This document shows, piece by piece, positions 806-56,936 of a stretch of 64,000 nucleotides of DNA (positions are counted from its first letter, which is position 1; each line of letters starts with the position of its first letter). The stretch comes from Escherichia phage alia. Below the pieces are notes generated by a model. It ran no database searches, was not told the DNA's origin, and saw only the letters and a list, made by a program, of their open reading frames with translations. The position numbers were made by a program, and so were the translations under genes. The stretch lies in sequence record NC_052655.1. One strand, written 5' to 3'.

Positions 806-901
806 ATGCCCTATTTACATTTATTTTTCGGGATCTTATTGTCAGGATCTTTTTTCTTCTGTATACTTGTTTCTATTGTAAACCACGTTTTAAGACATTA
901 A
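806..901 (+). CDS. small hydrophobic peptide (31 aa), candidate membrane peptide
   Basis: Not in ORF track (too short). AAGGAG 7 nt upstream of ATG 806; translation MPYLHLFFGILLSGSFFFCILVSIVNHVLRH is a single predicted TM helix. Confidence 0.3.
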   Translation: MPYLHLFFGILLSGSFFFCILVSIVNHVLRH

Positions 902-910
902 GGAAACAGC

Positions 911-1030
911 ATGAAAATTATTCCCGTACAATATAGCGTAATAAATCCAGCATACGAGGAAGGAAGGAAAACAAGCATGGCTTTATGTTGTATTGCTACT
1001 ATAGCCATGTTGTTATGCATTGTGTTTTAA
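911..1030 (+). CDS. small hydrophobic peptide (39 aa)
   Basis: Not in ORF track. AAGGAAACAGC precedes ATG 911; translation MKIIPVQYSVINPAYEEGRKTSMALCCIATIAMLLCIVF has a hydrophobic C-terminus. Confidence 0.3.
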   Translation: MKIIPVQYSVINPAYEEGRKTSMALCCIATIAMLLCIVF

Positions 1031-1059
1031 TAGGTTTTATAGTTGTACGCTTTAAAGGC

Positions 1060-1088
1060 TTGACAATTTTTTGTTATGCTTTAAACTA
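1060..1088 (+). promoter_or_regulatory. sigma70-like promoter candidate
   Basis: TTGACA at 1060-1065; weak -10 (AAACTA/TATATC) 17-18 nt downstream. Confidence 0.35.
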
Positions 1089-1130
1089 TATCTTGAAAAC
1101 GGCAAAGGCCGCAAACAAAAGGGTAAAATT

Positions 1131-1454
1131 ATGAAATCTGTGATCGGTGTTTATTTGGATAACTCTGATTTTTTCTATCATCGTGCTCGTTTCCTTGATG
1201 CGATTGAAATGATAGAATCAGGCTTTAAAGAGTATCGCCTTGCACATGATGACCTGGAAGCATTACAGGGCAATAGTGTTTTTACATTGCAAGCTAAAGC
1301 ACTATGCAAAAGCCGGATCGACATTGCGAGCAAAAAGATAGAACGCGGCATGTCCTGGTTACGCACCGCAGAAATCAACATGGGGCAATGGTACGGCGAA
1401 AACTTAGAAAATAAACATGCTTTTGTCAATGTAGAAAATATTGAAGATTATTGA
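1131..1454 (+). CDS. hypothetical protein (107 aa)
   Basis: ORF track 1071..1454; start moved to ATG 1131 because the track start lies inside the promoter. Confidence 0.5.
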   Translation: MKSVIGVYLDNSDFFYHRARFLDAIEMIESGFKEYRLAHDDLEALQGNSVFTLQAKALCKSRIDIASKKIERGMSWLRTAEINMGQWYGENLENKHAFVNVENIEDY

Positions 1455-1516
1455 TTGACAGCACACCTGATAAGGAGTATATTGTATCTCATAGAGCGGG
1501 GAAATGGTTTCCCCGC
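1455..1516 (+). promoter_or_regulatory. promoter plus 5' stem-loop cassette
   Basis: TTGACA 1455-1460, 17-nt spacer, TATATT 1478-1483, then GC-rich hairpin GCGGGG-AAATGGTTT-CCCCGC (1497-1516) with no U-tract, then RBS and ATG 1537. Confidence 0.55.
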
Positions 1517-1536
1517 CTTAACAGAAGAGATAAGAT

Positions 1537-1821
1537 ATGAAGATCACAAAAGCACTTTCCAACTATGCAGCACGTCGCGGATTATGCTTATCCGTTGAAA
1601 ACTTAGGGAAAGAAGATTTTTTGTGCTTTTGGGAGCTTGAGAATGATAATGAGTGGATCTTCTCTTATTCTATCTGCGAAGATCAAAACGGTTGTTTATT
1701 AACCTGGCGCGGTAATATCTATCTACCGGAAGAAATCAAAGAAGAATTGCCAGGCACGATCATGACTGAGAAACAGCTTAAGGAAGTGATTAATTTTGTA
1801 GGGCAAAACATTAAAAAATAA
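1537..1821 (+). CDS. hypothetical protein (94 aa)
   Basis: ORF track; preceded by promoter/stem-loop cassette and purine-rich RBS. Confidence 0.55.
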   Translation: MKITKALSNYAARRGLCLSVENLGKEDFLCFWELENDNEWIFSYSICEDQNGCLLTWRGNIYLPEEIKEELPGTIMTEKQLKEVINFVGQNIKK

Positions 1822-1822
1822 T

Positions 1823-1882
1823 TTGACACTAGGCAAACAACGTAGTAAAGTTTATCACATAGGGCGGGAAATGGTTTCCCGC
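1823..1882 (+). promoter_or_regulatory. promoter plus 5' stem-loop cassette
   Basis: TTGACA 1823-1828, 17-nt spacer, TAAAGT; hairpin GCGGG-AAATGGTTT-CCCGC at 1864-1882, near-identical to the hairpins at 1497 and 3509. Confidence 0.55.
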
Positions 1883-1905
1883 TCACAACAGAAGAGAAAC
1901 ACATC

Positions 1906-2076
1906 ATGATCCCGACTATGTTTTACGTATCGCGCAAAGGTCACAATATTTTTTGGTCTGAAGATTTAAATGAAGCCATGACGTTTGCCCGTGATCGTGT
2001 TGCTATCGGTGGCGTTAACATTACCGTAACCGATGAAAACGGCATTGAATACTATAACGGCGACGATGAAGAGTAA
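1906..2076 (+). CDS. hypothetical protein (56 aa)
   Basis: Not in ORF track (<60 aa). ATG 1906 follows cassette and AGAAGAG RBS; translation MIPTMFYVSRKGHNIFWSEDLNEAMTFARDRVAIGGVNITVTDENGIEYYNGDDEE. Confidence 0.45.
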   Translation: MIPTMFYVSRKGHNIFWSEDLNEAMTFARDRVAIGGVNITVTDENGIEYYNGDDEE

Positions 2077-2084
2077 TTAATAAG

Positions 2085-2105
2085 GCGGGGGAGTATTCCC
2101 CGCCG
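2085..2105 (+). promoter_or_regulatory. intergenic GC-rich stem-loop without promoter (RNA processing/stability element or weak terminator)
   Basis: GGCGGGG-GAGTATT-CCCCGCC hairpin between stop 2076 and ATG 2124; no TTGACA upstream and no U-run downstream. Confidence 0.4.
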
Positions 2106-2123
2106 TCAATAAAGAGGTAAATC

Positions 2124-2393
2124 ATGAAAATATCTTTGGACGTTGCAATCAAGGCCATCGAATCCGGTTACACCCTGGTAAAAGATGATAAGGCTAAAAC
2201 CGTGCACCACGTTAACAAGGAAACAGGCGAAAGCATGATCACATATAAAGCCGCCTACTTTCTCCAATCAGTAGCAGATCCGCGCGTACAACGCCAGGTT
2301 ACAGCGGCTATTGCTAAAAAATTATGTGCTTTACAGGGCACAAGTTTTAACGAGATCGCCCCGTGTTTTGACTGGTCGAGCTTGAAAAAATAG
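2124..2393 (+). CDS. hypothetical protein (89 aa)
   Basis: ORF track; AAGAGG RBS upstream. Confidence 0.55.
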   Translation: MKISLDVAIKAIESGYTLVKDDKAKTVHHVNKETGESMITYKAAYFLQSVADPRVQRQVTAAIAKKLCALQGTSFNEIAPCFDWSSLKK

Positions 2394-2394
2394 T

Positions 2395-2452
2395 TTGACA
2401 ACAATTATAAATCGGGTAGAATGTATTTCGTAGGGCGGCAATAGTGCCGCTC
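2395..2452 (+). promoter_or_regulatory. promoter plus 5' stem-loop cassette
   Basis: TTGACA 2395-2400, TAGAAT -10 near 2417-2422, hairpin GGGCGGCA-ATAG-TGCCGCTC at 2433-2452. Confidence 0.5.
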
Positions 2453-2473
2453 ACAACTAAAAGAGAAATCAGC

Positions 2474-2668
2474 ATGGCGCTTAAAAAACTAACAAGCAAT
2501 ACTCGTTGGGATGAAATCGACGGAGAAGTTTACATTTTCGCCCGTAAACCAGGTGATCAAAAATGGTCAAAGGCTTTTACTTGCCACCCTGCAACAATAG
2601 ATCTAATAAAAAGTAAAGGTTTACGTGAAGCAGTAGCGAGAAGTTTACTGATCCCTTATAAAAAATAG
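2474..2668 (+). CDS. hypothetical protein (64 aa)
   Basis: ORF track 2444..2668 starts at GTG inside the hairpin; ATG 2474 (AAAGAG RBS upstream) chosen instead. Confidence 0.5.
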   Translation: MALKKLTSNTRWDEIDGEVYIFARKPGDQKWSKAFTCHPATIDLIKSKGLREAVARSLLIPYKK

Positions 2669-2669
2669 T

Positions 2670-2731
2670 TTGACAATATGCTGTTATCTGGTAAAGTGTA
2701 CGACATAGGGCGGGGCAATAAGGCAACGCCC
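2670..2731 (+). promoter_or_regulatory. promoter plus 5' stem-loop cassette
   Basis: TTGACA 2670-2675, -10 TAAAGT, imperfect hairpin GGGCGGGGCAATAAGGCAACGCCC at 2708-2731. Confidence 0.5.
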
Positions 2732-2749
2732 ATTAATGAGGGTAGAATC

Positions 2750-2854
2750 ATGTTAGAGAAAATTTTCACGGTTGTAATAGTGGGCCTGGCGTTATCGGTT
2801 GGATTGGTTGCAACTATGGCTAACATGATCCTATCTTCCCACGGTATTGGATAA
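2750..2854 (+). CDS. small membrane peptide (34 aa)
   Basis: Not in ORF track. GAGGGTAGAATC precedes ATG 2750; translation MLEKIFTVVIVGLALSVGLVATMANMILSSHGIG is one hydrophobic helix. Confidence 0.35.
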   Translation: MLEKIFTVVIVGLALSVGLVATMANMILSSHGIG

Positions 2855-2864
2855 GGTGAATCAA

Positions 2865-3080
2865 ATGATCACGAATAAGACAGGTAAAACAGAATTTTTA
2901 CGCGGCTTGCAAATAGGTAAACCTGAGATCTGGCATTGCACTAAATCCGCGCATAATGAAATGAAAGATTTTACCGCTACTTTACAACGTGTTAAAATAT
3001 CTATCACACAGAAAAAAGCCTTGTTAGTAGTAGAAAACGAGATCCCGCAAACCATTATTATTGTCGAGCGTACAGCATGA
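2865..3080 (+). CDS. hypothetical protein (71 aa)
   Basis: ORF track 2847..3080; start moved to ATG 2865 (AAGGTG 6 nt upstream) to avoid overlap with the small upstream ORF. Confidence 0.45.
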   Translation: MITNKTGKTEFLRGLQIGKPEIWHCTKSAHNEMKDFTATLQRVKISITQKKALLVVENEIPQTIIIVERTA

Positions 3081-3463
3081 AAACTGAAATCATTAACGAA
3101 ATGATCAACGGCTATAAAGAAGCCTTTATTTTTGCCGAACCAGCGACGGATCACAATGGGGAATATATTGAGAATCTAGACGATTATGATTTTTCTCCTA
3201 GCGCCCTGAAACGTATTACCAGCGATGTGACCGCCTTTTGTAGTGCCAATGTTGCCGCTATCTCTGAGGCAATGAGCGACGGCGCAACAGCAAACCAGAT
3301 CGGGAATGACTTACATTTCACCCGTAACGGTCACGGCGTAGGCTTTTGGGATCGCCCTGAAATATACACTACTAACACCGCCAACCGCCTAACAAATGCA
3401 GCTAAATTAATGCCATCGGTGCATGCTTACATTGGTGAAGATAATTTGATTTATATTGAATAA
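3077..3463 (+). CDS. hypothetical protein (128 aa)
   Basis: ORF track; start overlaps upstream stop (ATGA coupling). Confidence 0.55.
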   Translation: MKTEIINEMINGYKEAFIFAEPATDHNGEYIENLDDYDFSPSALKRITSDVTAFCSANVAAISEAMSDGATANQIGNDLHFTRNGHGVGFWDRPEIYTTNTANRLTNAAKLMPSVHAYIGEDNLIYIE

Positions 3464-3469
3464 AAAGTA

Positions 3470-3529
3470 TTGACACCGATCCCCAATATGGTATTATTTA
3501 CCACGTAGGCGGGAAATGGTTTCCCGCCA
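3470..3529 (+). promoter_or_regulatory. promoter plus 5' stem-loop cassette
   Basis: TTGACA 3470-3475, 17-nt spacer, ATTATT/TATTAT -10, hairpin GGCGGG-AAATGGTTT-CCCGCC at 3509-3529. Confidence 0.55.
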
Positions 3530-3551
3530 GGTAATCAAAAAGGTAAATACT

Positions 3552-3941
3552 ATGCGCAACCTGGTTTCTGTTTCTAACGTTGAAAAATTCCAATCTTTAC
3601 AGGGTATCGTTAACAACGTAGCGCCTTTTTTAGTAAACGGCTTGATTGCAAAGATGAAAAATAAACATCATGCGGCATGGTCTGCTTATTGCTTTGATAA
3701 TGATGAAAAAGCGGCTGAAATGATGTTAGATATGCTGTTAGATAGTGTAGAAACATCTTTACCGGAAAACATCGCAGAAGAGATCACCTATCGTTATAAT
3801 ATGGCGATCACTTACCAGGAGGTTGCGCAATTCAACATGATGGATGATGACGAACAACAGGATCAAGAAATGTTTTGGGAGTATGCAGATCGTCAATCGG
3901 CTTTTGATGAAAAGTTAGCGATGTATTATAACGAATATTAA
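3552..3941 (+). CDS. hypothetical protein (129 aa)
   Basis: ORF track 3516..3941 begins inside the hairpin; ATG 3552 with AAAAAGG RBS chosen. Confidence 0.55.
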   Translation: MRNLVSVSNVEKFQSLQGIVNNVAPFLVNGLIAKMKNKHHAAWSAYCFDNDEKAAEMMLDMLLDSVETSLPENIAEEITYRYNMAITYQEVAQFNMMDDDEQQDQEMFWEYADRQSAFDEKLAMYYNEY

Positions 3942-3955
3942 TACACGGTAAAAGA

Positions 3956-3982
3956 AAGGGGCGCACTAAGCGCCCTTTTTTG
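3956..3982 (+). terminator. rho-independent terminator
   Basis: GGGGCGC-ACTAA-GCGCCCC hairpin followed by TTTTTT. Confidence 0.6.
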
Positions 3983-4326
3983 TATTCTTTTTTCACGATG
4001 GAAACAACACGTAAAGAATAGGCGTAAAGGTGGCGTAAAACAGTCTAAAACCGATTATAACCGCTTAAACAAGGTAACAATGACTAATCACCTTGCCAGG
4101 ATGAAAAAGCTGTTAGAAAGCTGTTTAGAGCGTTTAAAGCACATAGGAAATAACTTGCTTTTTATCTTGCCTTTTATCCTGCTTTTGATTATTATTATGG
4201 AACGGGCGGCACCTGGGGACAGGGGAAGATAATCACCGGAAGATCTTATCATATATTGATAGCTTCCCCCTATCAAACAACAAAACATTAAAGAGATAAA
4301 CTATCAAATCTTTACAATCCTACCTA

Positions 4327-4361
4327 TTGACCGATAAATCACAACAGTTTAATATTGTTTT
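4327..4361 (+). promoter_or_regulatory. sigma70-like promoter (TTGACC, 17 nt spacer, TAATAT)
   Basis: TTGACC at 4327-4332, 17-nt spacer, TAATAT; about 40 nt upstream of ATG 4404. Confidence 0.45.
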
Positions 4362-4403
4362 TAGAGGTTAGAATATTCCCCAAACGAAAACAGGAAAAAG
4401 AAA

Positions 4404-4640
4404 ATGAAAGAAGTCATGATCCTCAAAAAATCACCTATTTTACGTGGCGGTTTTATCGCTTACTCTGATGATCTGTTAATTGCAACAGTTGCAAAAATAC
4501 TAAAATCAGAAGAGGATAGTAAAAACGGCGTTTATCGTATCTGTTTCACCCGTGGAAAATTACAAGGCAAGATCGCCTATGCCTTTGATTTACAAGATGT
4601 AAATGATAAAATCTGCGCTGTTATTGATTATGCAAAATAA
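4404..4640 (+). CDS. hypothetical protein (78 aa)
   Basis: ORF track; purine-rich leader (ACAGGAAAAAGAAA). Confidence 0.5.
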   Translation: MKEVMILKKSPILRGGFIAYSDDLLIATVAKILKSEEDSKNGVYRICFTRGKLQGKIAYAFDLQDVNDKICAVIDYAK

Positions 4641-4652
4641 TTAACTTTCTTA

Positions 4653-4681
4653 TTGACACCGGATCACGCTTACATTATTAT
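4653..4681 (+). promoter_or_regulatory. sigma70-like promoter (TTGACA, 17 nt spacer, TATTAT)
   Basis: TTGACA 4653-4658, 17-nt spacer, TATTAT 4676-4681. Confidence 0.5.
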
Positions 4682-4727
4682 TTATCACGTAGGGCAAATC
4701 ATTTTAAACGGTAAACGAGGAAACACC

Positions 4728-5111
4728 ATGAGCAATATCATCAACCTGGCGGCTACTGTAAACGGTAAAGATTTTAACGGCGCTGTAGATCGTGATCCTA
4801 TGTGGTGCTTATCAGTGTTTAAAGGCGATCTGGTTGAAGTTAGAACAACCGAAGGGTATAGCGATGATTATAAATGCGAGATCCATTTACATAACTGGTA
4901 CACGGGTAAAACTTATGCGCTGAATCATGCGTTTATCGGGAAAATTGAATATCGCGAGATGATCGACGAAGAAACGGGGCAAGATTTTAGCGAGCATGTT
5001 TATATTCGTTCAGAAACATTAGCCGAACGTTTGATCGAGAAAATGAAAGCAAAAAATAAAATTAATTTATCTCATTGGATTGATATAACAAACGATCCGG
5101 CTTATCAGTAA
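4728..5111 (+). CDS. hypothetical protein (127 aa)
   Basis: ORF track 4653..5111 begins inside the promoter; ATG 4728 with GAGGAAACACC RBS chosen. Confidence 0.55.
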   Translation: MSNIINLAATVNGKDFNGAVDRDPMWCLSVFKGDLVEVRTTEGYSDDYKCEIHLHNWYTGKTYALNHAFIGKIEYREMIDEETGQDFSEHVYIRSETLAERLIEKMKAKNKINLSHWIDITNDPAYQ

Positions 5112-5127
5112 ATAACATTTCATACAA

Positions 5128-5153
5128 GGGCGCTTATTGCGCCCTTTCTTTTT
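5128..5153 (+). terminator. rho-independent terminator
   Basis: GGGCGC-TTATT-GCGCCC hairpin followed by TTTCTTTTT. Confidence 0.6.
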
Positions 5154-5357
5154 ACCTAAATAAAGATGATAGCTTTTACCTATCAAAAACGTTCACCGAA
5201 AAAAGTGAATAGATCGCGGTATCGAGCTAATCAAGGAGCAGATGAACAACCATACCATGAAGATCATAAGGCGCTTACAGCGTGTTTTAGACCGCTTATT
5301 TTTAATTTCTTCATGTAACTATCTGGCAAAAACAGCCTTTTTCTTGTCTTTCCTCTT

Positions 5358-6488
5358 AAATGATAATCATTCTTATTTATAGCTGATTATTTATGCAATA
5401 AACTGCATAATGCAATAATGATAATCATTCTTAACTTAAGACCATCTAACTTATAAAATAATAAGTTATCTAACTAAATTAAAGCTAATTATCTTACTTT
5501 TATTTATAACATACTGTTACTATCTTATTGATAACCTTATATTAAACAACAATAATCAATGTAAATCATTACTAAGCTAACTATAATCTATCTAACCCTT
5601 AAAACTACAATTATAATCTATCAAATTGTTGCACAAAGTAACTATTAAATTGTTAGTAACATTGCTAAATAATTAATATCCTATCTATTTATGATCTAAT
5701 CTTTACCTCCCTATCTATTACCTAAATAACCATTTCATGTGGTAATCATTTCATACAATAACTATAACAAGAAATATAATTCGCAAGCGTATCATTAGCA
5801 GCCTATGCCGGACACATAGGCGGCTAATAATAACGCAACTACACACCCCACATAATAACCATCACCGATAGTTATTATTTGTGCTTATGTAGCTTGCAAC
5901 AATTGCAAGCGCAACAATATACATGGTATATTGTATCCCTTACATTGTTGCGGTGCGTTATTATTAGCTAATGTTTAGAACATTGGCTATAATATAAGCT
6001 AAGTAATAAGCTAGTCAATAATAAACATAATGAATAATGACATTAATGATCATAATGCGCCACCCTCCAGGGGGCGCTATGTGAACACAAAGAAATCATT
6101 CTTGTCAAGAAAAATATCACCCTATTGCGCAAAATTATTTATATCTGAATAGATGATTTTTCATACTATTGCCCCCTATAACATACCTCATTTGTTGAGC
6201 CTACTTTCTTAAAAGCGCAATAAAGTAGAATTATCTTGATTTTTAGTCGGTTTTATAGTACAGAAAGTATGCAAATGATAATCATTATCAGCTATCCTCC
6301 AGGGTGGCACTATTTCACGCCAGATCATTTCATTTGGCAAGGTGTATATAGATGTTTAGAAATGCCAAGCCATTGATTTACTTAGAATTTATCTGTTTTG
6401 TTGTGAGTAGTACCTTTCTTGCTTAGAAAATAATCAAAAGTCTTATAAGTCATTGAATGATAATGCAAATGATAATTATTCTCATTGA
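5358..6488. repeat. AT-rich non-coding region with iteron-like repeats (core AATGATAATCATT) and repeated CCTCCAGGG(G/T)G(C/G)CAC motif
   Basis: Copies of (A)AATGATAATCATT(C/A)T near 5358, 5415, 6269 and 6455 (degenerate copy near 5741); CCTCCAGGGGGCGCTAT at 6064 and CCTCCAGGGTGGCACTAT at 6297. No credible ORF. Confidence 0.55.
5803..5965. repeat. palindrome-rich segment (hairpin GCCTATG...CATAGGC; inverted TAATAATAACGCAAC / GCGTTATTATTAGC)
   Basis: Read directly from sequence: 7-bp inverted repeat at 5803-5826 and longer inverted repeat arms flanking 5830-5960 with the central TTGCAACAATTGCAA palindrome. Confidence 0.45.
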
Positions 6489-15679: not shown

Positions 15680-15952
15680 ATGTCGGAAAACTTACCTAAT
15701 GTTTTCTTTTGTTTTGTAGATTGTGTTACACAAGAAATTATAGTTGACGAAGAAGGTATGTTTACTTATTTTGCATCTGAAGAAGAGGCAAAACTATCAG
15801 CTATGAAATGTATAAGCCAAATGTCAGTATCTGCTGTCAACAGGTTCGGTATTGCCCAGGTGTATAAAACAGTAACAGAGTTTACACCAGATCGAAAACT
15901 AACTTTTCTTAACGTTCACTTTGTTTGTAAGTTTAGTGAACTACGACATTAA
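15680..15952 (+). CDS. hypothetical protein (90 aa)
   Basis: ORF track. Confidence 0.5.
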   Translation: MSENLPNVFFCFVDCVTQEIIVDEEGMFTYFASEEEAKLSAMKCISQMSVSAVNRFGIAQVYKTVTEFTPDRKLTFLNVHFVCKFSELRH

Positions 15953-15966
15953 AAGCAGGAGTAAAA

Positions 15967-16566
15967 ATGAAAGAATATTGGAGTGGTGAGAAGGGCTTGC
16001 TAAAGCCAGGGATGCTTTTGCGAGTAAAGAACATGTTGATCACACAAGATTACATAATGCCTAATCCTGGAGCATTAGTAGAATTCCTTACTGCGCGAGA
16101 TCAACCTGGGGTTGGTGAAATGTGGATTGTAACGTGGATATCTCTCGATAGTAAATTGCGCGTTGCTCCTATTGACCCAAAACACTTGGAATCTCCTTAC
16201 GCCAGCATTGATTCTCGGATCATAGATTTGGCTAGAGTTTATAAGGCTAGGACTGGTGTAGAATTAGATGTAGAAATTTTAAATCAATGTATTGACTTCT
16301 TACCTGAAAAAGTGCATAATGCACAACAAGAAGATAGCAGTTTAGAAGTTATTCTTCTGAATGATGGGATGTTCTCTGGTTTGGCATCTGTAGATTTTCC
16401 AATAACATTAAGATTGTTACCTGGAGAATACGTACTAGATGAAGATACTATTGCTATATCCTCTAAAATTTTAGAACTCATTCCAGGTGCAAGGTGTGTT
16501 GGTGATACATCTTCCTTGCTGTTTACTCTGAATGAAGAAGCCGTTATAGTTAAAAAGGAGAAGTAA
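15967..16566 (+). CDS. hypothetical protein (199 aa)
   Basis: ORF track; AGCAGGAG RBS. Confidence 0.6.
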   Translation: MKEYWSGEKGLLKPGMLLRVKNMLITQDYIMPNPGALVEFLTARDQPGVGEMWIVTWISLDSKLRVAPIDPKHLESPYASIDSRIIDLARVYKARTGVELDVEILNQCIDFLPEKVHNAQQEDSSLEVILLNDGMFSGLASVDFPITLRLLPGEYVLDEDTIAISSKILELIPGARCVGDTSSLLFTLNEEAVIVKKEK

Positions 16567-16671
16567 ATGATGACGTTTATTGTTGGTGTTGTTGTTGGTT
16601 ATTTTGGTCACAAGTATCAGGATGTTATCATCGCTAAAGTTGACGAAGTAATCGAAAAATTTAAACACTAA
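16567..16671 (+). CDS. small membrane peptide (34 aa)
   Basis: Not in ORF track. ATG directly after upstream stop with AAGGAGAAG upstream; translation MMTFIVGVVVGYFGHKYQDVIIAKVDEVIEKFKH. Confidence 0.35.
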   Translation: MMTFIVGVVVGYFGHKYQDVIIAKVDEVIEKFKH

Positions 16672-16722
16672 TTTTCTAAAAGGCTGTACTATTGTGCAGC
16701 CTATCTTTCAAAGGAGAGTAAA

Positions 16723-16896
16723 ATGTTCAAAGATACCAATTATAAATGTGTACATTGTGGTAAATCTTTTGGTGATCACCAAGCTAAGACGTTCAATTGT
16801 CCACGAAAAGGGCGAGGTAGCTTTAAAGGTTTTAATCCATCCCACGTTTATTCTCCCAACTACGAGAAACCAGAAGAAGAAAAATTTGTAATCTGA
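16723..16896 (+). CDS. small Cys-pair protein (57 aa), possible zinc-ribbon
   Basis: AAGGAGAG 6 nt upstream of ATG 16723; translation MFKDTNYKCVHCGKSFGDHQAKTFNCPRKG... has CxxC plus a third Cys. Preferred over the overlapping track ORF 16694..16891 (different frame, no RBS). Confidence 0.45.
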   Translation: MFKDTNYKCVHCGKSFGDHQAKTFNCPRKGRGSFKGFNPSHVYSPNYEKPEEEKFVI

Positions 16897-16905
16897 GGAG
16901 GCAAT

Positions 16906-17193
16906 ATGGAACTAGTACAAGAAGTTTATGAAAAACTAAAAGAAGAGAATCTTGATTGGCCTGAACATGCTCTTATTGTCGTCAAAGATACTAATGGTGA
17001 AATAAAATTCTCAAGTGTAAGTGAAGACGATGTTGTTTTAAGTCCTACAGGATATTATATGAGAGGTGTTACGTGTCTATTCAACACCAAAGTGTATCCT
17101 GAAGTTAAACTTAGTTACGGTGAACCTGATCATCCAGAAATCGTTACACGTAATGAATATGAAAATTATTATTTTGCTCGTGAAAGCAAATAA
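16906..17193 (+). CDS. hypothetical protein (95 aa)
   Basis: ORF track; GAGGAGG RBS. Confidence 0.55.
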   Translation: MELVQEVYEKLKEENLDWPEHALIVVKDTNGEIKFSSVSEDDVVLSPTGYYMRGVTCLFNTKVYPEVKLSYGEPDHPEIVTRNEYENYYFARESK

Positions 17194-17201
17194 GGAAAAC
17201 T

Positions 17202-17525
17202 ATGCAAAAAATAAACACTGGTTCTCGTCCTAAACAGAAGCAAACAAAAGCAAGGGTATCTTATGTTGATAACTCTTGTTATAATTTTAAAAATGTTAAA
17301 GAAGTCATCATTGACGAAAAAGAAGGTTTGATTCACATTTCATCTGAACGTTTGAAAGGTAGTGTTACTCTTCGTGAGAATGTATCTATACCTATGAAAG
17401 TTGTGGTTACACTCTGTGTTGATAAGCCAGATGTTGTTAACTATTATGTGTTCCGTGATAGTTGTATTTCATCACATAATAAGATTTTTAAATCTTCGCA
17501 CGTTAAAACAAAACACATTGTATAA
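17202..17525 (+). CDS. hypothetical protein (107 aa)
   Basis: ORF track; AAGGAAAACT upstream; followed by terminator. Confidence 0.55.
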   Translation: MQKINTGSRPKQKQTKARVSYVDNSCYNFKNVKEVIIDEKEGLIHISSERLKGSVTLRENVSIPMKVVVTLCVDKPDVVNYYVFRDSCISSHNKIFKSSHVKTKHIV

Positions 17526-20330: not shown

Positions 20331-20453
20331 ATTACCCCCAATGTATATGGGAAATTAACCAAAAGATAAATTCCCAAAAACACCAACCAAGAAAAGTTAA
20401 TGGAATTATAAAAGCTATCAGAGCAGTCTTCCAGCCTTTCCACAATGTTTCCA

Positions 20454-21443
20454 TCATTCCTCCATACACTTAAGAATATGTGCAATGACAGGTATAGTCC
20501 AACCATTACCTAACATCTTATATGCTTGTGTGTTACTACTCACTTTAAAGTAATCATCAGGAACACCTTGCAAGCGGCAACACTCTTTAACCGTTAACTT
20601 TCTATAATGTACACCTTCACTCAATTTTTCAAAGGCATCCAGATATCTTCCAGGTGGAATGTAAGCTAATAGTACGTCTTTCGGCACAGTCGTGAGGCAA
20701 CGAGTTTTTTCACTGTCCTGAACTTCCAAGCAATGTACCAAACGATCAGTTTTAGATGTACTACGTTTGCCATTTTCATTAATTCTACGCCCATATATTG
20801 CTGCTGGATAAAAAACCAGTTGTCTGCGACTCTTTTCAAAATATTGTTCTATATTACCACCTTTGGCATAATTTGCATCTATGCAATAAGCCTTATCCCT
20901 GTCTACAATACTATCATCTTCAATGATATCTTGCAACACTTCATTGGTAATATCCCAAGGTTTTATTTCCCAATTGCACCAGTATAAACGTTGTCTATTC
21001 TGTGCAGTGAAATCTGCGGAGTTAATGAATACGGGATCAACACCTAAGTAACTTGTGATCACGTTTTCCCACTCCACCTTCATCTTAACGTTTTCAAGCA
21101 TGAACTTAACATTAGGGTTAAACTTTTTAATATGTTCAAGAATTTCAACATATTCAAAGAACAGTTTAGATCGCGGATCTTGAAAGTTCAAACCCTTACC
21201 AGAAGAAGAGAAGCCTTGGCACGGGCTACCACCTAACAAAAGATCAATTTCTCCCCACGGGATATCCCATTCTCTCCATTTTGTAACATCACCTAATTGA
21301 ATAATATCTGGAAAATTGGCTTGGCTTTCAGCTATGGCAAATTTATCCAATTCTGAGGCATAATACTTATCTACTTCAATACCTGCACTTTTTAGTGCAA
21401 GCATTCCTCCTGACATACCATCAAAAAGACTTAAAACTTTCAT
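20454..21443 (-). CDS. DNA cytosine-5 methyltransferase
   Basis: Motif I LSLFDGMSGG (FxGxG), motif IV GGSPCQGFSSSG (PCQ), motif VI ENV, motif VIII QNRQRLYW and motif X GNGWTIPV seen in order in the translation. Confidence 0.85.
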   Translation of the reverse strand: MKVLSLFDGMSGGMLALKSAGIEVDKYYASELDKFAIAESQANFPDIIQLGDVTKWREWDIPWGEIDLLLGGSPCQGFSSSGKGLNFQDPRSKLFFEYVEILEHIKKFNPNVKFMLENVKMKVEWENVITSYLGVDPVFINSADFTAQNRQRLYWCNWEIKPWDITNEVLQDIIEDDSIVDRDKAYCIDANYAKGGNIEQYFEKSRRQLVFYPAAIYGRRINENGKRSTSKTDRLVHCLEVQDSEKTRCLTTVPKDVLLAYIPPGRYLDAFEKLSEGVHYRKLTVKECCRLQGVPDDYFKVSSNTQAYKMLGNGWTIPVIAHILKCMEE

Positions 21444-29589: not shown

Positions 29590-30090
29590 TTAGTTATAAG
29601 CGTCTAATGTTCCAGTTTTAAGCACCTGAATTACACGCTCTGCGCGATTAGGCGTTTGGCGATACCATTTACTTTTACGTAAATTTATAGAGGCTTGAGT
29701 ATAATATGAATTACTCACTAAAGTCAAGCTATTTTTGAAAGATTCTGCACCTTTCAATCCCATTTGAAATACCATATTAATAATAGCCATTTTACGATTA
29801 GGACTTACTTTATCGTAAATAGGAGATAGTATGGTACTTGAATGGATTTGTTGTATCGCTTTCTTTACGTCACCCTCAAAGATTTTTCTAGCTTCCGCTT
29901 CAGTAATAACCCCATTAGTTTTTCTACCTACTAAGTTATCAAGAATGCGTATAGCTTCTGATTTATCTTTAAGTTTTGTCAGAAGGTGTCCAATACCAAC
30001 CGTCCAATACCCTTCGGTATCAGTATATACAGTTAGCTTTAGTCCTTCATCAAAACGTAACATATCAAACACATCAACTACTTTAGCCAT
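29590..30090 (-). CDS. T4-type lysozyme (GH24 endolysin)
   Basis: MLRFDEGLKLTVYTDTEGYWTVGIGHLLT and C-terminal KSKWYRQTPNRAERVI are near-identical in pattern to phage T4 lysozyme (catalytic Glu/Asp/Thr triad positions conserved). Confidence 0.9.
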   Translation of the reverse strand: MAKVVDVFDMLRFDEGLKLTVYTDTEGYWTVGIGHLLTKLKDKSEAIRILDNLVGRKTNGVITEAEARKIFEGDVKKAIQQIHSSTILSPIYDKVSPNRKMAIINMVFQMGLKGAESFKNSLTLVSNSYYTQASINLRKSKWYRQTPNRAERVIQVLKTGTLDAYN

Positions 30091-51288: not shown

Positions 51289-51446
51289 CAATTTTCTCCA
51301 TACTCTTTTAATTTATCAGCGAAAAAACTGTAATCAGGAAGTAAAAGATCATTACTCGTATCGCTCCAGTTTTCTTCCTCTCTATAGATAAAATGCCCTT
51401 CATCCTCTTCTTGCTCTGACCAAACTGAGTAATGCATAACACCTAC

Positions 51447-51821
51447 TTAGTAGTTAACACGTTTAATTTCAACACCATAGGATGAAATAAAATTTTCCTT
51501 GGCTAACATATATTTACCAGCAGCAGAAGGATTTGATGTATGAACATAGATAGTTTTAAGAGCATCCCATTCACCCGCGTACAACATACATTCTACGTCT
51601 AAGAACGCATGATATCCTTCTTGATCTTCTCCAAGATCATTATCGAAGTGTATCTCTGAGATATTATTGAAATTATCTTCATCTGAAACAAAAGATGACC
51701 AATCCCCAAAAGATTTTAACCAAATGGCATCCTCATAACCATAATCTTTAGGATCTCTTAAATCGTCTAACCAAAGAATTTTAGCCACTATCAACCCCCT
51801 TCCTGTTTCTCTTCTTTCCAA
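51447..51821 (-). CDS. hypothetical protein (124 aa)
   Basis: ORF track. Confidence 0.5.
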   Translation of the reverse strand: MERRETGRGLIVAKILWLDDLRDPKDYGYEDAIWLKSFGDWSSFVSDEDNFNNISEIHFDNDLGEDQEGYHAFLDVECMLYAGEWDALKTIYVHTSNPSAAGKYMLAKENFISSYGVEIKRVNY

Positions 51822-51982
51822 GTTTTACCTTTATCTACCAATTGCTTAGAAACAGCAAATCTTTCTCCATTGACATAAAACAGATAAAGAATAAAGGATT
51901 TTCCTATAGTTACAGTATCTACTACTTCTACACGCTTTACACCTTGCATGTATTTGGCTTTACCTGAATAAATAAGGAACAT
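51791..51982 (-). CDS. hypothetical protein (63 aa)
   Basis: ORF track; overlaps downstream start by 31 nt. Confidence 0.4.
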   Translation of the reverse strand: MFLIYSGKAKYMQGVKRVEVVDTVTIGKSFILYLFYVNGERFAVSKQLVDKGKTWKEEKQEGG

Positions 51983-52260
51983 TATTTATTCCTTTTGTTG
52001 TTGATTACATCTAAAGCTGTGTAAGGTTTGTTTGTACCGCTGTATTCAAGAATAATTGGTGCATGTTCATAGACAAACTCAAAAGTACCATACACAGAAT
52101 CTGCAACTGAAATAAGCATTTCAGTGTCTTCATCGTTCTTAATTAATGAAAACCTTGCCCCTGGTTTATTGAGCACTTCATATTTCTTACCTGCTGTCAG
52201 CAAACCTGAATACCATTCATTTTGCACAACAGACAAACACTTCAGATAGGTTTTTCTCAT
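51982..52260 (-). CDS. hypothetical protein (92 aa)
   Basis: ORF track. Confidence 0.5.
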   Translation of the reverse strand: MRKTYLKCLSVVQNEWYSGLLTAGKKYEVLNKPGARFSLIKNDEDTEMLISVADSVYGTFEFVYEHAPIILEYSGTNKPYTALDVINNKRNK

Positions 52261-52598
52261 TTCTTTTTGCTCCTTCTTTTAGGCTTCTCGTATAAACCTA
52301 ACACAGCAGACTCTTTTGCACAGATAGGAACTGACTTCATTCCTCGTTTTTTGGCTTCTGGTAGATTCAAAACCCACCAGCCAAACCAATACAATTCATC
52401 TTCTGTGAAAGGATCTGCCATAGGATCTGCATCACGTTCTTCAAATTTAGCAAGAGCTTCTTCTATCTTTTCTATTGGAGTGTCAAAGACAAAAGCCTCT
52501 GTGTCAAATTTTTGTTTCTTAGGAGCGGCCTTTGCCGCCCCATCTTTAGATGCGTGCTTTGTTACGGATCGCTTCTTCGGTGTTTTCGCCATCAACAA
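52257..52598 (-). CDS. hypothetical basic protein (113 aa)
   Basis: ORF track; Lys-rich N- and C-termini. Confidence 0.45.
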   Translation of the reverse strand: MLMAKTPKKRSVTKHASKDGAAKAAPKKQKFDTEAFVFDTPIEKIEEALAKFEERDADPMADPFTEDELYWFGWWVLNLPEAKKRGMKSVPICAKESAVLGLYEKPKRRSKKK

Positions 52599-52785
52599 CC
52601 TCCATACGGTGTAAGAAATCTTGCTGGAATCGCCAATACTGTTGACCAGTCCTTACATCTTCGTAGATCACAACAGGATCAAACACTTTAGATACACCCG
52701 CTGGTTTAGGAAAACCAACTACACGATATAAACCACCTTTACTAATACAAGAATATGTTACATCAGTTAAAATTTCTTTTTTCAT
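52546..52785 (-). CDS. hypothetical protein (79 aa)
   Basis: ORF track. Confidence 0.45.
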   Translation of the reverse strand: MKKEILTDVTYSCISKGGLYRVVGFPKPAGVSKVFDPVVIYEDVRTGQQYWRFQQDFLHRMEVVDGENTEEAIRNKARI

Positions 52786-52979
52786 TTTTTAATAAACTCC
52801 AAAACAGGTACGTGATCAGCAGTCAAAGTTACACAATTGTAACTTACCTTTTCAACTTCAGAGAATGCTTCAACCCAAAGCAAGAAATTCTCTTTAGCTT
52901 CTTCATAATTCAATGTTGACTTAACAACATGGAACTCACCAAGAATTACTCTATAGATTGTTTGCATAGTTTGATTCAT
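52782..52979 (-). CDS. hypothetical protein (65 aa)
   Basis: ORF track. Confidence 0.45.
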   Translation of the reverse strand: MNQTMQTIYRVILGEFHVVKSTLNYEEAKENFLLWVEAFSEVEKVSYNCVTLTADHVPVLEFIKK

Positions 52980-53045
52980 TTATTTTTCCTTTGTTTAAAA
53001 TGTGTTAAACAATCGCAAATGCTTGTGACGCACTTTGTGATCCCA

Positions 53046-53414
53046 CTAATTAACGTCAGCACTATGATTGTTGAGAGTATAGGATACTCCATCGCCCAAG
53101 TCAACATGAATCTCAACTCCTAACTGTCTGTCTAATGGTAAACGTTTTGAGAATTGATAATTACAAAGTTTGCAATCTAAGTCAAGCAACTCATGTTTGC
53201 TTAGGCCTGGAATGATAACTTTGCTTCCCACTGTCCACTCAATACCTTCAAAGTTATCTCTTCTTTTCAAAATGTCAAGTAAGAAGATGATTTGTTGCCA
53301 TTCCGTAGACAAGTCTTCTTCATAGAATGCTGAACAAAAAGTTTTATCATCGTAGAAAGCATACATTATGCCTCCATCTATTGTTTCACTTCTAACGTAA
53401 CGTGTGACCCTCAT
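53046..53414 (-). CDS. hypothetical protein (122 aa)
   Basis: ORF track; first gene of the minus-strand block. Confidence 0.5.
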   Translation of the reverse strand: MRVTRYVRSETIDGGIMYAFYDDKTFCSAFYEEDLSTEWQQIIFLLDILKRRDNFEGIEWTVGSKVIIPGLSKHELLDLDCKLCNYQFSKRLPLDRQLGVEIHVDLGDGVSYTLNNHSADVN

Positions 53415-53545
53415 TATTCCCTCCTGTATGGCTCTGTAACGAGCTAATAGCCTCTAAGATATGCAATCACCTTACCTCACAGTAAAACTCGTTACAATCG
53501 TTTTTAGGAGGTTTAGGTTGTACTTAAAAATAATCCAAAAAGGTG

Positions 53546-53606
53546 TTGACAAACGCAAAAAAGTATGCTACCCTAACCCCCGAAAAACGCCGAGCGCAGC
53601 GAGGGG
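53546..53606 (+). promoter_or_regulatory. promoter plus 5' stem-loop with no downstream ORF
   Basis: TTGACA 53546-53551, 17-nt spacer, TACCCT; hairpin CCCCC-GAAAAACGCCGAGCGCAGCGA-GGGGG at 53576-53606; the next 150 nt are AT-rich with no ORF before the promoter at 53756. Confidence 0.35.
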
Positions 53607-53755
53607 GTGTTATCTAATCTTGTGATACATGATCTAACAGACAACTGAGTAGTCTACATATAGCACTATGTTATGTCTATAATACTAACATACGTACTCT
53701 ATACTAACAATAGATTCTTTATTAATTTTATTATTAATTAAATAATAAATATCTA

Positions 53756-53784
53756 TTGACTTTAGATCTATCTGTATGTAGAGT
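53756..53784 (+). promoter_or_regulatory. sigma70-like promoter (TTGACT, 17 nt spacer, TAGAGT)
   Basis: TTGACT 53756-53761, 17-nt spacer, TAGAGT; AAGGAG RBS then ATG 53824. Confidence 0.5.
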
Positions 53785-53823
53785 AGAGAACATAAAGTCC
53801 TAACTCAACTAAGGAGATAAACA

Positions 53824-54717
53824 ATGAAAGTTAGTATTCTACATGGTGTTGACTGTTATGTTACTGATGTAGACGTTAAAGTCTTTACATTCTCTGGTGG
53901 AGAACAACATGTTCAACTAGACACGAATCTATCAGGTTTCAATCATGCTACAGACAGAATCTTACTCTCTTTAGAAGTAAGATCTGCTAAAGACTTGATG
54001 ACTTTGGTTATGACTAAGAATGCATTGGACAATATGCTATATCATAAACCATATTGTGTTGATTTGCTCATGTTGTATGTGCCATATGCACGACAAGACA
54101 GAGTGTGTGAACCTGGGGAAGCATTCGGAGTTAAAGCATTTGCTTCTATAATTAATTCATTAAATTTCTCACGTGTTATCGTTGCTGATCCACATAGTGA
54201 TGTTACTCCAGCGGTGTTTGACAGACTCTGTGTAATACCTCAAGAAGAGATTGCTTACGAAACTTTAAAGTGGAAGTTACGTATGGAGAATTTTGCTCTT
54301 GTTAGTCCTGATGGTGGTGCTCTTAAGAAAATATTTAAATTATCTAAGAAAATGTCTTTAGATGTGTTCTGTGCAGAGAAGGTTAGAGATACTGCAACAG
54401 GTGCTATTGTTCGTACAGACATTTCTGTACAGGATTTCAATAAGCGTAACCTGATGATCGTAGATGATATCTGTGACGGCGGTAGAACTTTTATTGAATT
54501 GGCTAAAGTGCTACGTGCTCGTAACGCAGGTAAGATTGAGTTATATGTTACACACGGTATCTTTTCTAAAGGTCTTAAAGAGTTAAGTGAGCACTTTGAC
54601 TGCATTCATTCTCTTAATGTGTGGGAAGATAACATCCAAGAAGATTCCGGTGTTCTTGTTAAGAATCAGTCAGATTTGCAACAACAAATTGTATCTCCAT
54701 ACGTGTGGAATTTTTAA
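53824..54717 (+). CDS. ribose-phosphate pyrophosphokinase (PRPP synthetase)-like protein
   Basis: 297 aa; phosphoribosyl-binding loop MIVDDICDGGRT (compare Prs VDD-x-x-DTGGT); N-terminal half parallels Prs. Confidence 0.7.
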   Translation: MKVSILHGVDCYVTDVDVKVFTFSGGEQHVQLDTNLSGFNHATDRILLSLEVRSAKDLMTLVMTKNALDNMLYHKPYCVDLLMLYVPYARQDRVCEPGEAFGVKAFASIINSLNFSRVIVADPHSDVTPAVFDRLCVIPQEEIAYETLKWKLRMENFALVSPDGGALKKIFKLSKKMSLDVFCAEKVRDTATGAIVRTDISVQDFNKRNLMIVDDICDGGRTFIELAKVLRARNAGKIELYVTHGIFSKGLKELSEHFDCIHSLNVWEDNIQEDSGVLVKNQSDLQQQIVSPYVWNF

Positions 54718-54727
54718 ATAATAAGTG

Positions 54728-54762
54728 TTGACAATAGGGAGTATGCTTAGTAAGATACTCCC
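54728..54762 (+). promoter_or_regulatory. promoter overlapping a stem-loop
   Basis: TTGACA 54728-54733, 17-nt spacer, TAAGAT 54751-54756; inverted repeat GGGAGTAT...ATACTCCC (54737-54762) encloses the -10. Confidence 0.45.
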
Positions 54763-54788
54763 ACACTAACAAACAAGGAGACATAACT

Positions 54789-56522
54789 ATGAATATTTTT
54801 GCACCTTTTGCTACTGATTGGTATAAACCTGGTCACAAGCAGATGTACAACCAAAATACAAAACTTATTTTCTCTAATTTAACTCCTCGTAATGATAAAA
54901 ACTTTGCACACTATGCAGATCGTGAAGCACGTGGTGTAATTGTTTTAGGTATTCGTCGAGCAGTTACTGATGCTCTTGTAACTATGTGGGATAGCTTCTT
55001 TAAAATGTCTCGTAGTGCAGCAGTAAATAAGTTTTATCGTATGTCTAAAAATGCATTAGGTGCTTCTGCTCCTTCTGCTGAATGTTGGGGAGAATTGCAC
55101 GATTTAGGTTATCTTCCGCTGGAAGTTCGATCTCTGCCAGAAGGTGTTTTGTGTCCTATTGGTGTTCCTGTGTTTACTGTGCATAATACTTTAGAAAAAT
55201 TCTTTTGGTTAACTAACTATGTGGAAACACTATTGTCAGATGAAACTTGGAAGACAATGACTAATGCTACAGCAGCTTTTCAGTATAAGCGTATTGCTAT
55301 GGCATATGCGATGGCAACGTGTGATAATATTGATCACGTTAACTTCCAGTGTCATGATTTTAGCCTACGTGGTTTAAGTAATATCGAAGATGGTTATAAG
55401 AGTGGTATCGCTCATTTGGCATCTTTCACAGGAACAGATAACATTCTGGCTATTGAGACTGTGCATGATTATTATGGTATTGATTATGATCAGTTTGTTG
55501 CAGGTTCTATTCCGGCAACAGAACATTCAGTAGCAACGACTAACATTGGAGCTATTGTTGAAGATCTGAAGAAACATTTCCCACATCTTAAAGATGATGT
55601 TGATGGGCTTCGTTATGTAGCAGAGAAAGAGTTTCTTCGCCGCTATATCGAAGAAATTGTTCCAGAAGGTTTTTGTTCATATGTAGCAGATTCTTATGAC
55701 TACTGGGCTGTCTTGACTCGCATTCTGGTAGAATTGAAAGAATCCATTATGTCACGAAATGGTCGTCTTGTTATTCGTCCAGATTCAGGAGATCCGGTTA
55801 AAGTTGTTGCAGGATACAATGTTGAATCTTTTGATAACTATGAAGACCTTTTAAATAATGGTATTGCTACAGCCACTGAAGTAGTTCATTTGGCTGATGT
55901 TAATAAGTATTACAATGTTCTTCAGGATTGCAGTGTTGCTGATTGTATTGATGAAACTTATGAGATTCCTTATTGTGAAGCAGTAGGTTCTATTCAAATC
56001 CTTTGGGAAGTGTTTGGTGGTACTATCAACCGAAAAGGCTACAAGGTTCTTGATCAGCACATCGGTATGATTTATGGTGATTCTATTACTGTTGAACGAG
56101 AACACGAGATCTTACGCCGACTGAAGAAGAAAGGTTTTGCAGCTTCCAATATTGTATTTGGTGTTGGTAGTTATACTTATCAGTTCAATACACGAGATAC
56201 TTTTGGTTTTGCTGTTAAAGCAACAGGTAGTATCATCGGTGAACACGAAATTTTGGTAAGTAAGGAGCCTAAAACTGATCCTGGTAAACGTTCTGCAAAA
56301 GGTTTTATTAAGGTTGTTAAGGATACAAACGGTAAACTTTCTCTCGTGGATAATCTTTCTTTTAAAGATATTCAAGATGAAGACAATGAGTTAAAAGTTA
56401 TCTTCAGGGATGGTACGGTTATTACACCACAAGTAGAAGGACGTGATGAAACATTTACGGATATCCGCAACCGTGTTGATGTAGAGGTTCTTCGTACTAT
56501 GGGAACCATCCAGGTTGACTAA
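54789..56522 (+). CDS. nicotinamide phosphoribosyltransferase (NAMPT/NadV)-like protein
   Basis: 577 aa; N-terminal FATDWYKPGHKQMY parallels the NAMPT TDSYK-x-x-H motif; size and glycine-rich central segments are consistent with the type II phosphoribosyltransferase fold. Confidence 0.7.
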   Translation: MNIFAPFATDWYKPGHKQMYNQNTKLIFSNLTPRNDKNFAHYADREARGVIVLGIRRAVTDALVTMWDSFFKMSRSAAVNKFYRMSKNALGASAPSAECWGELHDLGYLPLEVRSLPEGVLCPIGVPVFTVHNTLEKFFWLTNYVETLLSDETWKTMTNATAAFQYKRIAMAYAMATCDNIDHVNFQCHDFSLRGLSNIEDGYKSGIAHLASFTGTDNILAIETVHDYYGIDYDQFVAGSIPATEHSVATTNIGAIVEDLKKHFPHLKDDVDGLRYVAEKEFLRRYIEEIVPEGFCSYVADSYDYWAVLTRILVELKESIMSRNGRLVIRPDSGDPVKVVAGYNVESFDNYEDLLNNGIATATEVVHLADVNKYYNVLQDCSVADCIDETYEIPYCEAVGSIQILWEVFGGTINRKGYKVLDQHIGMIYGDSITVEREHEILRRLKKKGFAASNIVFGVGSYTYQFNTRDTFGFAVKATGSIIGEHEILVSKEPKTDPGKRSAKGFIKVVKDTNGKLSLVDNLSFKDIQDEDNELKVIFRDGTVITPQVEGRDETFTDIRNRVDVEVLRTMGTIQVD

Positions 56523-56593
56523 ATAAAAACTTCGTGATAAGATTAAGGTAAGGAGAGCCTGCAACTGCCCTGGATGGGCTTCACGAAGGATTT

Positions 56594-56815
56594 ATGAAAC
56601 AACATAATTTTTATTTTCGTTGCCGAGCCTGTAACAGACACTTGACTAATCATTCCCGTAGAGACAGGAATGGTAATATTCAAGAGTCGGATCTATGCTC
56701 GATTTGTACAAGTTTGGCATTCGACGACAGTCCCGAAAGGGTTTATCAACATCAAAGTGTAACTGATCTTCTTCTAAATTACACAGCACCAGAGGAGGAA
56801 TTAGATTTCACATAA
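56594..56815 (+). CDS. small zinc-finger-like protein (73 aa)
   Basis: ORF track; CRACNRH...CSICTS Cys pairs. Confidence 0.45.
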   Translation: MKQHNFYFRCRACNRHLTNHSRRDRNGNIQESDLCSICTSLAFDDSPERVYQHQSVTDLLLNYTAPEEELDFT

Positions 56816-56828
56816 TTAAGGAAACAGT

Positions 56829-56936
56829 ATGTCTACAGAAATTATTTTTGGCTTATCTGTTTTTATTGCTATTGTATCTTTTGTATGCGGTTATACACTA
56901 GGTTACAGATCAAGAAAAAATATTGTAAAAAACTAG
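56829..56936 (+). CDS. small membrane peptide (35 aa)
   Basis: Not in ORF track. AAGGAAACAGT precedes ATG; translation MSTEIIFGLSVFIAIVSFVCGYTLGYRSRKNIVKN. Confidence 0.3.
   Translation: MSTEIIFGLSVFIAIVSFVCGYTLGYRSRKNIVKN

Follow-up and report, generated by a model that had tools for sequence, protein, structure and literature searches.

Small hydrophobic open reading frames in the early-type units of Escherichia phage alia: three conserved putative membrane-peptide genes and two genus-restricted frames of doubtful constraint

Among the described systems closest to the peptides considered here are bacterial small inner-membrane regulators. AcrZ, MgrB, MgtS, KdpF, and CydX, of 29-49 residues, combine a single hydrophobic helix with a short conserved soluble segment, and regulators of the AcrZ type act by binding a larger membrane protein (PMC12648545). 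On the phage side, PhiNM1 Gp11 is an early small membrane protein that disables functions of the host envelope, its targets being MurG and DivIC (PMC11237401). Here we examine five small open reading frames (ORFs) on the plus strand of Escherichia phage alia (sequence record NC_052655.1), within a stretch of 64,000 nucleotides that we call the window. They were listed in an initial annotation of this DNA and are numbered O1 to O5 from left to right: O1 (806..901), O2 (911..1030), O3 (2750..2854), O4 (16567..16671), and O5 (56829..56936). By megablast, the window belongs to a phi92-like coliphage of the genus Justusliebigvirus (subfamily Stephanstirmvirinae).

How do these five compare with the described systems? 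They are phage-encoded and have no sequence similarity to the AcrZ, MgrB, MgtS, KdpF, or CydX peptides, although the layout of O4, in which an amphipathic helix comes after an N-terminal anchor, is similar to that of AcrZ. PhiNM1 Gp11 and the Imm and Sp proteins of phage T4 are early, small, membrane-located, and encoded among genes of unknown function, as our five would be; their hosts and phages are unrelated to this one and there is no homology. Imm and Sp, which act early and at the membrane in superinfection exclusion, have 83-97 residues, and the five are shorter. The nearest relatives at the sequence level are three PHROG families, phrog_10979, phrog_14631, and phrog_11666, which O2, O3, and O4, respectively, match over essentially their full length. 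The first belongs to the moron/host-takeover category (and is labelled "membrane protein"), while the other two are families of unknown function.

We propose that the five ORFs are a mixed set of early small peptide genes, in which O2, O3, and O4 are kept by selection and O1 and O5 show no measurable constraint, and that the conserved peptides bind a partner at the inner membrane early on. Taken as a whole, we consider this fairly probable. The initial annotation, which had described five small membrane peptides, is thus partly confirmed in what it observed and partly supported in how it interpreted it: three of its ORFs are genuine conserved genes (with O4 putatively membrane-associated), as argued by cross-genus conservation and purifying selection, and two are lineage-specific ORFs without detectable constraint, whose functionality is doubtful. 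The same annotation had named a lack of conservation in related genomes as one finding that would speak against it. O2, O3, and O4 are conserved across genera, and O1 and O5 are both restricted to the genus, with its 54 members.

The physical description of the five ORFs largely holds. They were found at exactly the coordinates given above, with 31, 39, 34, 34, and 35 codons, and each is preceded by a Shine-Dalgarno sequence (SD) at the canonical spacing, as had been claimed: AAGGAG at 793-798 for O1 (the best of the five, 7 nt before the ATG), TAAGGA at 899-904 for O2, GAGGGT at 2738-2743 for O3, AAGGAG at 16555-16560 for O4, and TAAGGA at 56817-56822 for O5 (each of these four 6 nt before the ATG). 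The 15-nt initiation region TAAGGAAACAG[C/T]ATG is identical in O2 (899-913) and O5 (56817-56831), and has no third match in the window at up to 2 mismatches (0.48 expected). A single hydrophobic helix, which had been ascribed to all five, is found in four. O1, O2, O3, and O5 contain 19-22 unbroken apolar residues with a negative summed insertion energy (Hessa scale) and are predicted to form a transmembrane (TM) helix. They thereby resemble small inner-membrane proteins, for which we took a minimum of about 18 apolar residues with predicted membrane insertion. O4 lacks such a segment: its apolar run is 14 residues long (MMTFIVGVVVGYFG), has a positive insertion energy, and is followed by a charged amphipathic segment.

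As a class, hydrophobic SD-preceded small ORFs exceed chance. Counting ATG-initiated ORFs that span 25-45 codons, follow an SD of 5 nt or more, and encode a TM-like segment, we found 5 in the window; 30 block shuffles gave 0.47 on average and never more than 2. With the SD threshold lowered to at least 4 nt, there were 6 on the coding strand and none antisense. Each of the five loci is covered by 54 genus records; identity reaches 97.4% to the best record over positions 1-4000, 99.6% to ECGD1 over 15900-17300, and 99.8% to phage inny over 56300-57400 (megablast). Scans of IMG/VR using the neighbouring proteins gave 2-5 loci only.

O3 is a clear case. This putative single-pass peptide of 34 residues matches phrog_14631 over residues 1-34 of 34 (E=1e-22). 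Its identity among Justusliebigvirus, Phapecoctavirus, and several Vequintavirus phages is 91-100%, and the region around it (2600-2950) matches 240 phage records, rV5-like Vequintavirus among them. Each of the 10 relatives checked has an unbroken copy, and every homologue examined has 34 residues; no copy was found in KP13-26. The ratio of nonsynonymous to synonymous substitution rates (dN/dS) is 0.11-0.19, and the C-terminal half carries the conserved pattern GxVATMANxILSSxGIG. O3 also comes with its own expression signals: a dedicated promoter with a TG extension, TTGACA-16-TAAAGT (2670..2697, plus strand), a conserved 5' leader stem-loop, GGGCG...CGCCC with TAGGGCGG (2708..2731, plus strand; -16.8 kcal/mol, z = -4.3), and the SD. 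These elements move together with the gene except in JES2013, whose O3 homologue, equal in length and 59% identical, sits in wholly different flanking DNA; in several genomes, homology stops exactly at the O3 stop codon. The longer versions of O3 annotated in some records would start at or upstream of the -10 element and therefore lie outside the transcript. Together, these comparisons argue that O3 is a genuine gene kept by selection. Its conservation across rV5-like and phi92-like genera, together with a promoter and a leader of its own, makes it a good candidate for the study of early host takeover.

O2, of 39 residues, appears to be a tail-anchored peptide, and its SD overlaps the stop codon of O1. 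Residues 6-39 align to positions 6-39 of the 39 in the phrog_10979 profile (E=2.3e-9). By tblastn, homologues of 39-41 residues and 42-50% identity occur in Phapecoctavirus, in the 52-kb Rosemountvirus Salmonella phages, and in Pseudomonas phage PsgM04F, and many of them are annotated as "membrane protein". What they conserve is the N-terminal motif V-[EQ]-Y-[ST]-V-x-N-P-A-[YV]-x-E-G-[RK], which for O2 itself reads VxYSVxNPAYxEGR. The homologues in phAPEC8_ev052, PsgM04F, and SE13 share the architecture of O2, in which the motif is followed by an apolar tail of 16-19 residues that runs to the C-terminus and is conserved in hydrophobicity only. Within the genus (20 sequences, 16 of them unique, for O1 and O2 alike), O2 has 6 synonymous and 8 nonsynonymous variable sites. 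All the nonsynonymous changes fall in codons 24-37, which belong to the TM half; changes in codons 1-22 are exclusively synonymous. Between phAPEC8 and PsgM04F, dN/dS is 0.38. We therefore regard O2, on the pattern of its substitutions and homologues, as a genuine gene kept by selection. Applied to R19 and K20, the positive-inside rule predicts that the conserved motif of about 20 residues is probably cytoplasmic.

The end of O2 is overlapped by a rival ORF of 49 codons (985..1134, plus strand), which the records of Nernie, Bas60, Bas62, ZYD, KMB37, and pEC-M2929-1AR.1 list as a hypothetical protein. Both the promoter at 1060-1087 and the SD of the gene that follows lie within this frame, an extra T causes a frameshift in the copy of an IMG/VR contig (L007), and no PHROG matches it, for which reasons it is probably spurious and a mis-annotation.

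O4, of 34 residues, matches phrog_11666 (E=7.9e-13) and combines a short hydrophobic N-terminus with an HKYQD motif and an amphipathic helix. There are matches in 132 records. Identity is 100% in 52 records of the genus, but about 60% for the Phapecoctavirus homologues and 45% for one from a Klebsiella phage, both of which keep the core GY..xKYQD; dN/dS is 0.18-0.24. The O4 ATG directly adjoins the stop codon of an upstream gene of 199 codons. In the Klebsiella phage the upstream gene is unrelated and the downstream gene, encoding a Cys-rich, zinc-finger-like protein of 57 residues, is conserved; O4 is always linked to this downstream gene. These data support O4 as a genuine gene, kept by selection, for what would be a membrane-associated peptide. 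Two genes past the O4 homologue, the same Klebsiella phage (phi1_175008, our contig L019) carries at 1804..1926 a very hydrophobic ORF of 40 residues, MSIIVIIIAVLVIFGAAKYSLIAVLIAGMVLGLILPRLMK, and small membrane peptides thus recur in the early region across the subfamily.

All five ORFs lie in early-type units under strong TTGACA-type sigma-70 promoters. The left arm of the window consists of successive short genes, most with their own promoter of the form TTGACA-N16/17-TAnnnT (at 448, 1060, 1455, 1823, 2395, 2670, and 3470), an arrangement from which we infer early expression driven by the host RNA polymerase. O1 and O2 share a unit with a gp240 homologue (499..801). The sigma-70-type promoter TTGACA-17-TAAGAT (448..476, plus strand) heads this unit, and a second one, TTGACA-16-TAAACT (1060..1087, plus strand), bounds it and serves the next gene (1131..1454). 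At the other end of the window, O5 runs up to a promoter, TTGACA-18-TAAGAT (56937..56966, plus strand), which begins directly after its stop codon.

In light of this layout, what might the conserved peptides do? Made early from sigma-70-type promoters, they would insert into or attach to the inner membrane and there bind a host or phage membrane-associated protein, in an action of the host takeover or superinfection exclusion type rather than in lysis timing. O2 would place its conserved N-terminal motif in the cytoplasm and hold it by a freely varying TM anchor, and O4 would use its short hydrophobic N-terminus as an anchor for the amphipathic helix that follows. Binding of a specific partner is favoured for O2, O3, and O4 because selection acts on short specific motifs and not on bulk hydrophobicity. 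Early membrane modulation by these three is thus the likeliest role that their sequences suggest. It corresponds to the membrane-protein modulators among the functions put forward in the initial annotation, which we retain as a best guess reached purely by inference; for O1 and O5, functionality itself is doubtful.

Several observations weigh against parts of this proposal. The hydrophobic stretch of O4 is too short for a classical TM helix, so that the description as a single hydrophobic helix is wrong for this peptide. The neighbouring genes of the five ORFs all belong to PHROGs of unknown function, and gene context therefore offers no functional clue; our literature search found no functional or expression data on the five peptides. 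A 3-periodic Markov coding score, trained on the long genes of the window and poor for hydrophobic peptides, left even the clearly real O3 indistinguishable from the null distribution, and for this reason codon periodicity was set aside as evidence. The remaining points concern O1 and O5. O1, a peptide of 31 residues (MPYLHLFFGILLSGSFFFCILVSIVNHVLRH), has no homologue that we could find outside the genus, and in the 20 sequences sampled its variable sites comprise 5 nonsynonymous changes (P2S, P2H, S13T, I20M, and R30K) against 2 synonymous ones. In one metagenomic contig (L046), a 1-nt deletion truncates it. O5, a homologue of Phi92_gp109 with 35 residues, is a genus-specific insertion between two conserved genes: in two Phapecoctavirus-like contigs (L014 and L015), the flanking genes of 73 and 88 codons abut with no ORF between them. 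Indels that break the O5 frame occur in at least 6 of the 54 genomes. They include a 41-nt internal duplication in AV123, EmilieFrey, and, judging by the match pattern, probably phiWec187, as well as -1 changes in a T run in PHB05 and in an A run in ESCO32. The window itself has an extra A in the A run at 56925-56931 relative to nearly all relatives, so that its O5 ends in ...VKN for ...VKTS and the stop codon is shifted off the -35 hexamer of the next promoter. This extra A may represent a genuine allele or an error in sequencing a homopolymer, and some of the other 1-nt changes may be such errors too, which the 41-nt duplication cannot be.

The most serious alternative takes up these last facts: O1 and O5 may be non-functional frames that opened by chance where a T-rich spacer separates a gene from the promoter after it, with any translation incidental. 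Such frames mimic TM helices because T-rich codons give Phe, Leu, and Ile. The restriction of both ORFs to the 54 genus members fits this account, as do the excess of nonsynonymous sites and the frameshift in O1, the absence and the broken forms of O5, and the O1 coding score, which is the most null-like of the set. There is also no significant family match for either: O1 has none in Pfam, PHROGs, or NCBIfam, and the best for O5 is a partial, sub-threshold one to phrog_19198 (E=4e-4). On the other side, both ORFs combine a strong, ideally spaced SD with an exact fit into the gap available, the O1 ATG lying 4 nt past the upstream stop codon and the O1 stop codon falling inside the SD of O2. O1 is intact in 54 of 54 isolate genomes despite a run of six T, the first 23-24 residues of O5 are retained even in the duplication variants, and the class to which both belong is about tenfold above the shuffles with no antisense members. 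The substitution numbers for O1 and O5 are, moreover, too small for a real test. We therefore place the chance-frame account at a little under even odds for these two ORFs. They are probably translated, though without measurable constraint, and their standing as genes under selection is doubtful.

A different view of the same spacers would make O1 and O5 very young genes that arose de novo from T-rich sequence, and would add that the invariant motif of O2 marks a specific host target. We think this combination unlikely. Were it true, the genus would offer a natural series for the birth of membrane-peptide genes, with intact, duplicated, and frameshifted alleles co-circulating, and the invariant, putatively cytoplasmic motif of O2, common to three unrelated enterobacterial phage groups, would point to a specific target in the host.

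Could the peptides be toxins, as had also been suggested? Type I toxins such as Hok, TisB, Ldr, and Ibs resemble the five in length and hydrophobicity, and early expression of peptides that depolarise the membrane and collapse the proton motive force would suit a role in host shut-off. Yet no toxin family match was obtained in Pfam, PHROGs, or NCBIfam, no similarity to the Hok, Ldr, TisB, and Ibs families was seen, and Rfam yielded no antitoxin RNA anywhere in the window (searches of Rfam, Pfam, NCBIfam, and PDB sequences with the five ORFs gave nothing relevant). Strong exposed SDs, constitutive-type promoters, and the lack of an antisense RNA architecture set the five apart from type I loci. 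O2 is best conserved in its non-membrane N-terminal motif and O3 in its C-terminal motif, which speaks for specific binding over bulk membrane damage, and an early collapse of the proton motive force would be expected to hurt replication of the phage itself. A toxin role is, in our estimation, improbable.

The further suggestion of holins or antiholins controlling the timing of lysis fares worse still. Small size and single TM helices would fit, and the lambda S105/S107, T4 T/RI, and S21 pinholin proteins share with the five the trait of being hydrophobic, phage-encoded, and membrane-located. In addition, an ORF of 68 residues in phAPEC8_ev052, three genes upstream of the O2 homologue, is labelled "bifunctional anti-holin/holin", and a very weak match (E=0.14) links O5 to an Rz-like spanin PHROG. 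Holins, however, are late genes, usually beside the endolysin, with at least about 60-70 residues and often 2-3 TM helices, and 31-39 residues with one TM helix is below the size of characterised holins. Our five ORFs, all plus-strand, belong to units that have early promoters of the TTGACA type and lie outside any lysis cassette. The T4-lysozyme-like endolysin gene (29590..30090) has the opposite orientation, on the minus strand, and a distance of at least 13 kb separates it from the closest of the five. None of the five matches a holin or spanin family in Pfam, PHROGs, or NCBIfam, and the 68-residue "holin" of phAPEC8_ev052 has no counterpart among them. With early-type units, a remote endolysin, and no family matches, holin or antiholin roles are very unlikely, and this part of the initial annotation is unsupported.

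Equally remote is the idea that O1 is a C-terminal membrane-anchor extension of the upstream protein of 100 residues (499..801), produced through a +1 frame change or transcriptional slippage on a run of seven T (786-792): the O1 frame is indeed open upstream from 776 across the T run, whose length differs among isolates (eight T in Bas62), and loss of one T would join the two in frame, but O1 has its own strong SD and ATG, no fused form occurs in the 20 sampled sequences, no stimulatory structure was identified, and a run of seven T is short for efficient slippage. In Bas62, the run of eight T makes the 100-residue protein two residues shorter. Two other origins or functions for the O1 stretch were tried and rejected. 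Its derivation as a degenerate copy of the promoter spacer 5' of the phAPEC8 O2 homologue had no convincing homology behind it (score 70.5, against a shuffle maximum of 71). A promoter-like site within O1, TTGTCA-17-TATACT, includes 3 of the 7 variable sites of O1 in its hexamers; because the hexamers vary without consistent compensation, the site is unlike a conserved promoter, and we rejected an internal promoter as the true function of the stretch.

For O2, O3, and O4, which under our proposal are the conserved members of a mixed early set, much of the value of the analysis is in annotation. The five had been reported as unannotated, which is true of the ORF track that accompanied the sequence and largely of O2; O1, O3, O4, and O5 are annotated in related GenBank records, where they are labelled as hypothetical proteins (phi92 gp032 and gp109, and the BASEL phages). 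O1 is annotated in Nernie, Bas60, Bas62, and ZYD, and O3 in Bas62, naswa, PMBT16, JES2013, FV3, and VEcB. O4 is identical in sequence to Phi92_gp032, and the exact 35-residue form of O5 is matched only by the alia RefSeq protein JR320_gp233. Annotated orthologues in the three PHROG families include phAPEC8_004, Phi92_gp032, FV3_00160, and bas62_0133. O2 alone of the five is routinely missed in this genus: it is without annotation in all 16 Justusliebigvirus records inspected and, across the genus, in nearly every record. Only one O2 match, that in pEC-M2929-1AR.1, coincides with an annotated feature, which may be the rival 49-codon ORF; the exact O2 sequence occurs only in metagenomic gene calls. 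O2, O3, and O4 are thus already catalogued as hypothetical families, and no new kind of system is implied. The main gain is the correction at O2, in place of which some genus records carry the spurious 49-codon ORF, together with a shortlist of O2, O3, and O4 for functional work.

Beyond the five loci, the coding strand of the window changes twice: genes lie on the plus strand up to about 17.9 kb, then on the minus strand as far as about 53.4 kb, and from there on the plus strand once more, with a tRNA array after them. Two further SD-preceded hydrophobic ORFs, absent from the initial list, were found on the minus strand, neither with a PHROG match. One, of 40 residues (METLWKGWKTALIAFIIPLTFLGWCFWEFIFWLISHIHWG; 20332..20454), occupies the tight space between a cytosine-methyltransferase-like gene and the gene after it, where stop and start codons overlap, and the other, of 43 residues (52976..53107), overlaps the end of the ORF 53046..53414. 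The TAGGGCGG motif seen in the O3 leader occurs at 1860-1885, 2431-2452, and 2706-2731, about 8-10 nt 3' of strong TTGACA-type promoters. It is the 5' arm of a GC-rich stem-loop, and three left-arm promoters have such a stem-loop downstream. The motif also precedes early genes in phAPEC8_ev052 and PsgM04F. The stem-loop resembles a conserved 5' element opening early transcripts, with mRNA stabilisation perhaps as its role. At 2444..2668, the longest ORF begins at a GTG within the leader stem-loop, and the ATG at 2474, which is the annotated start in Nernie, is the more plausible start.

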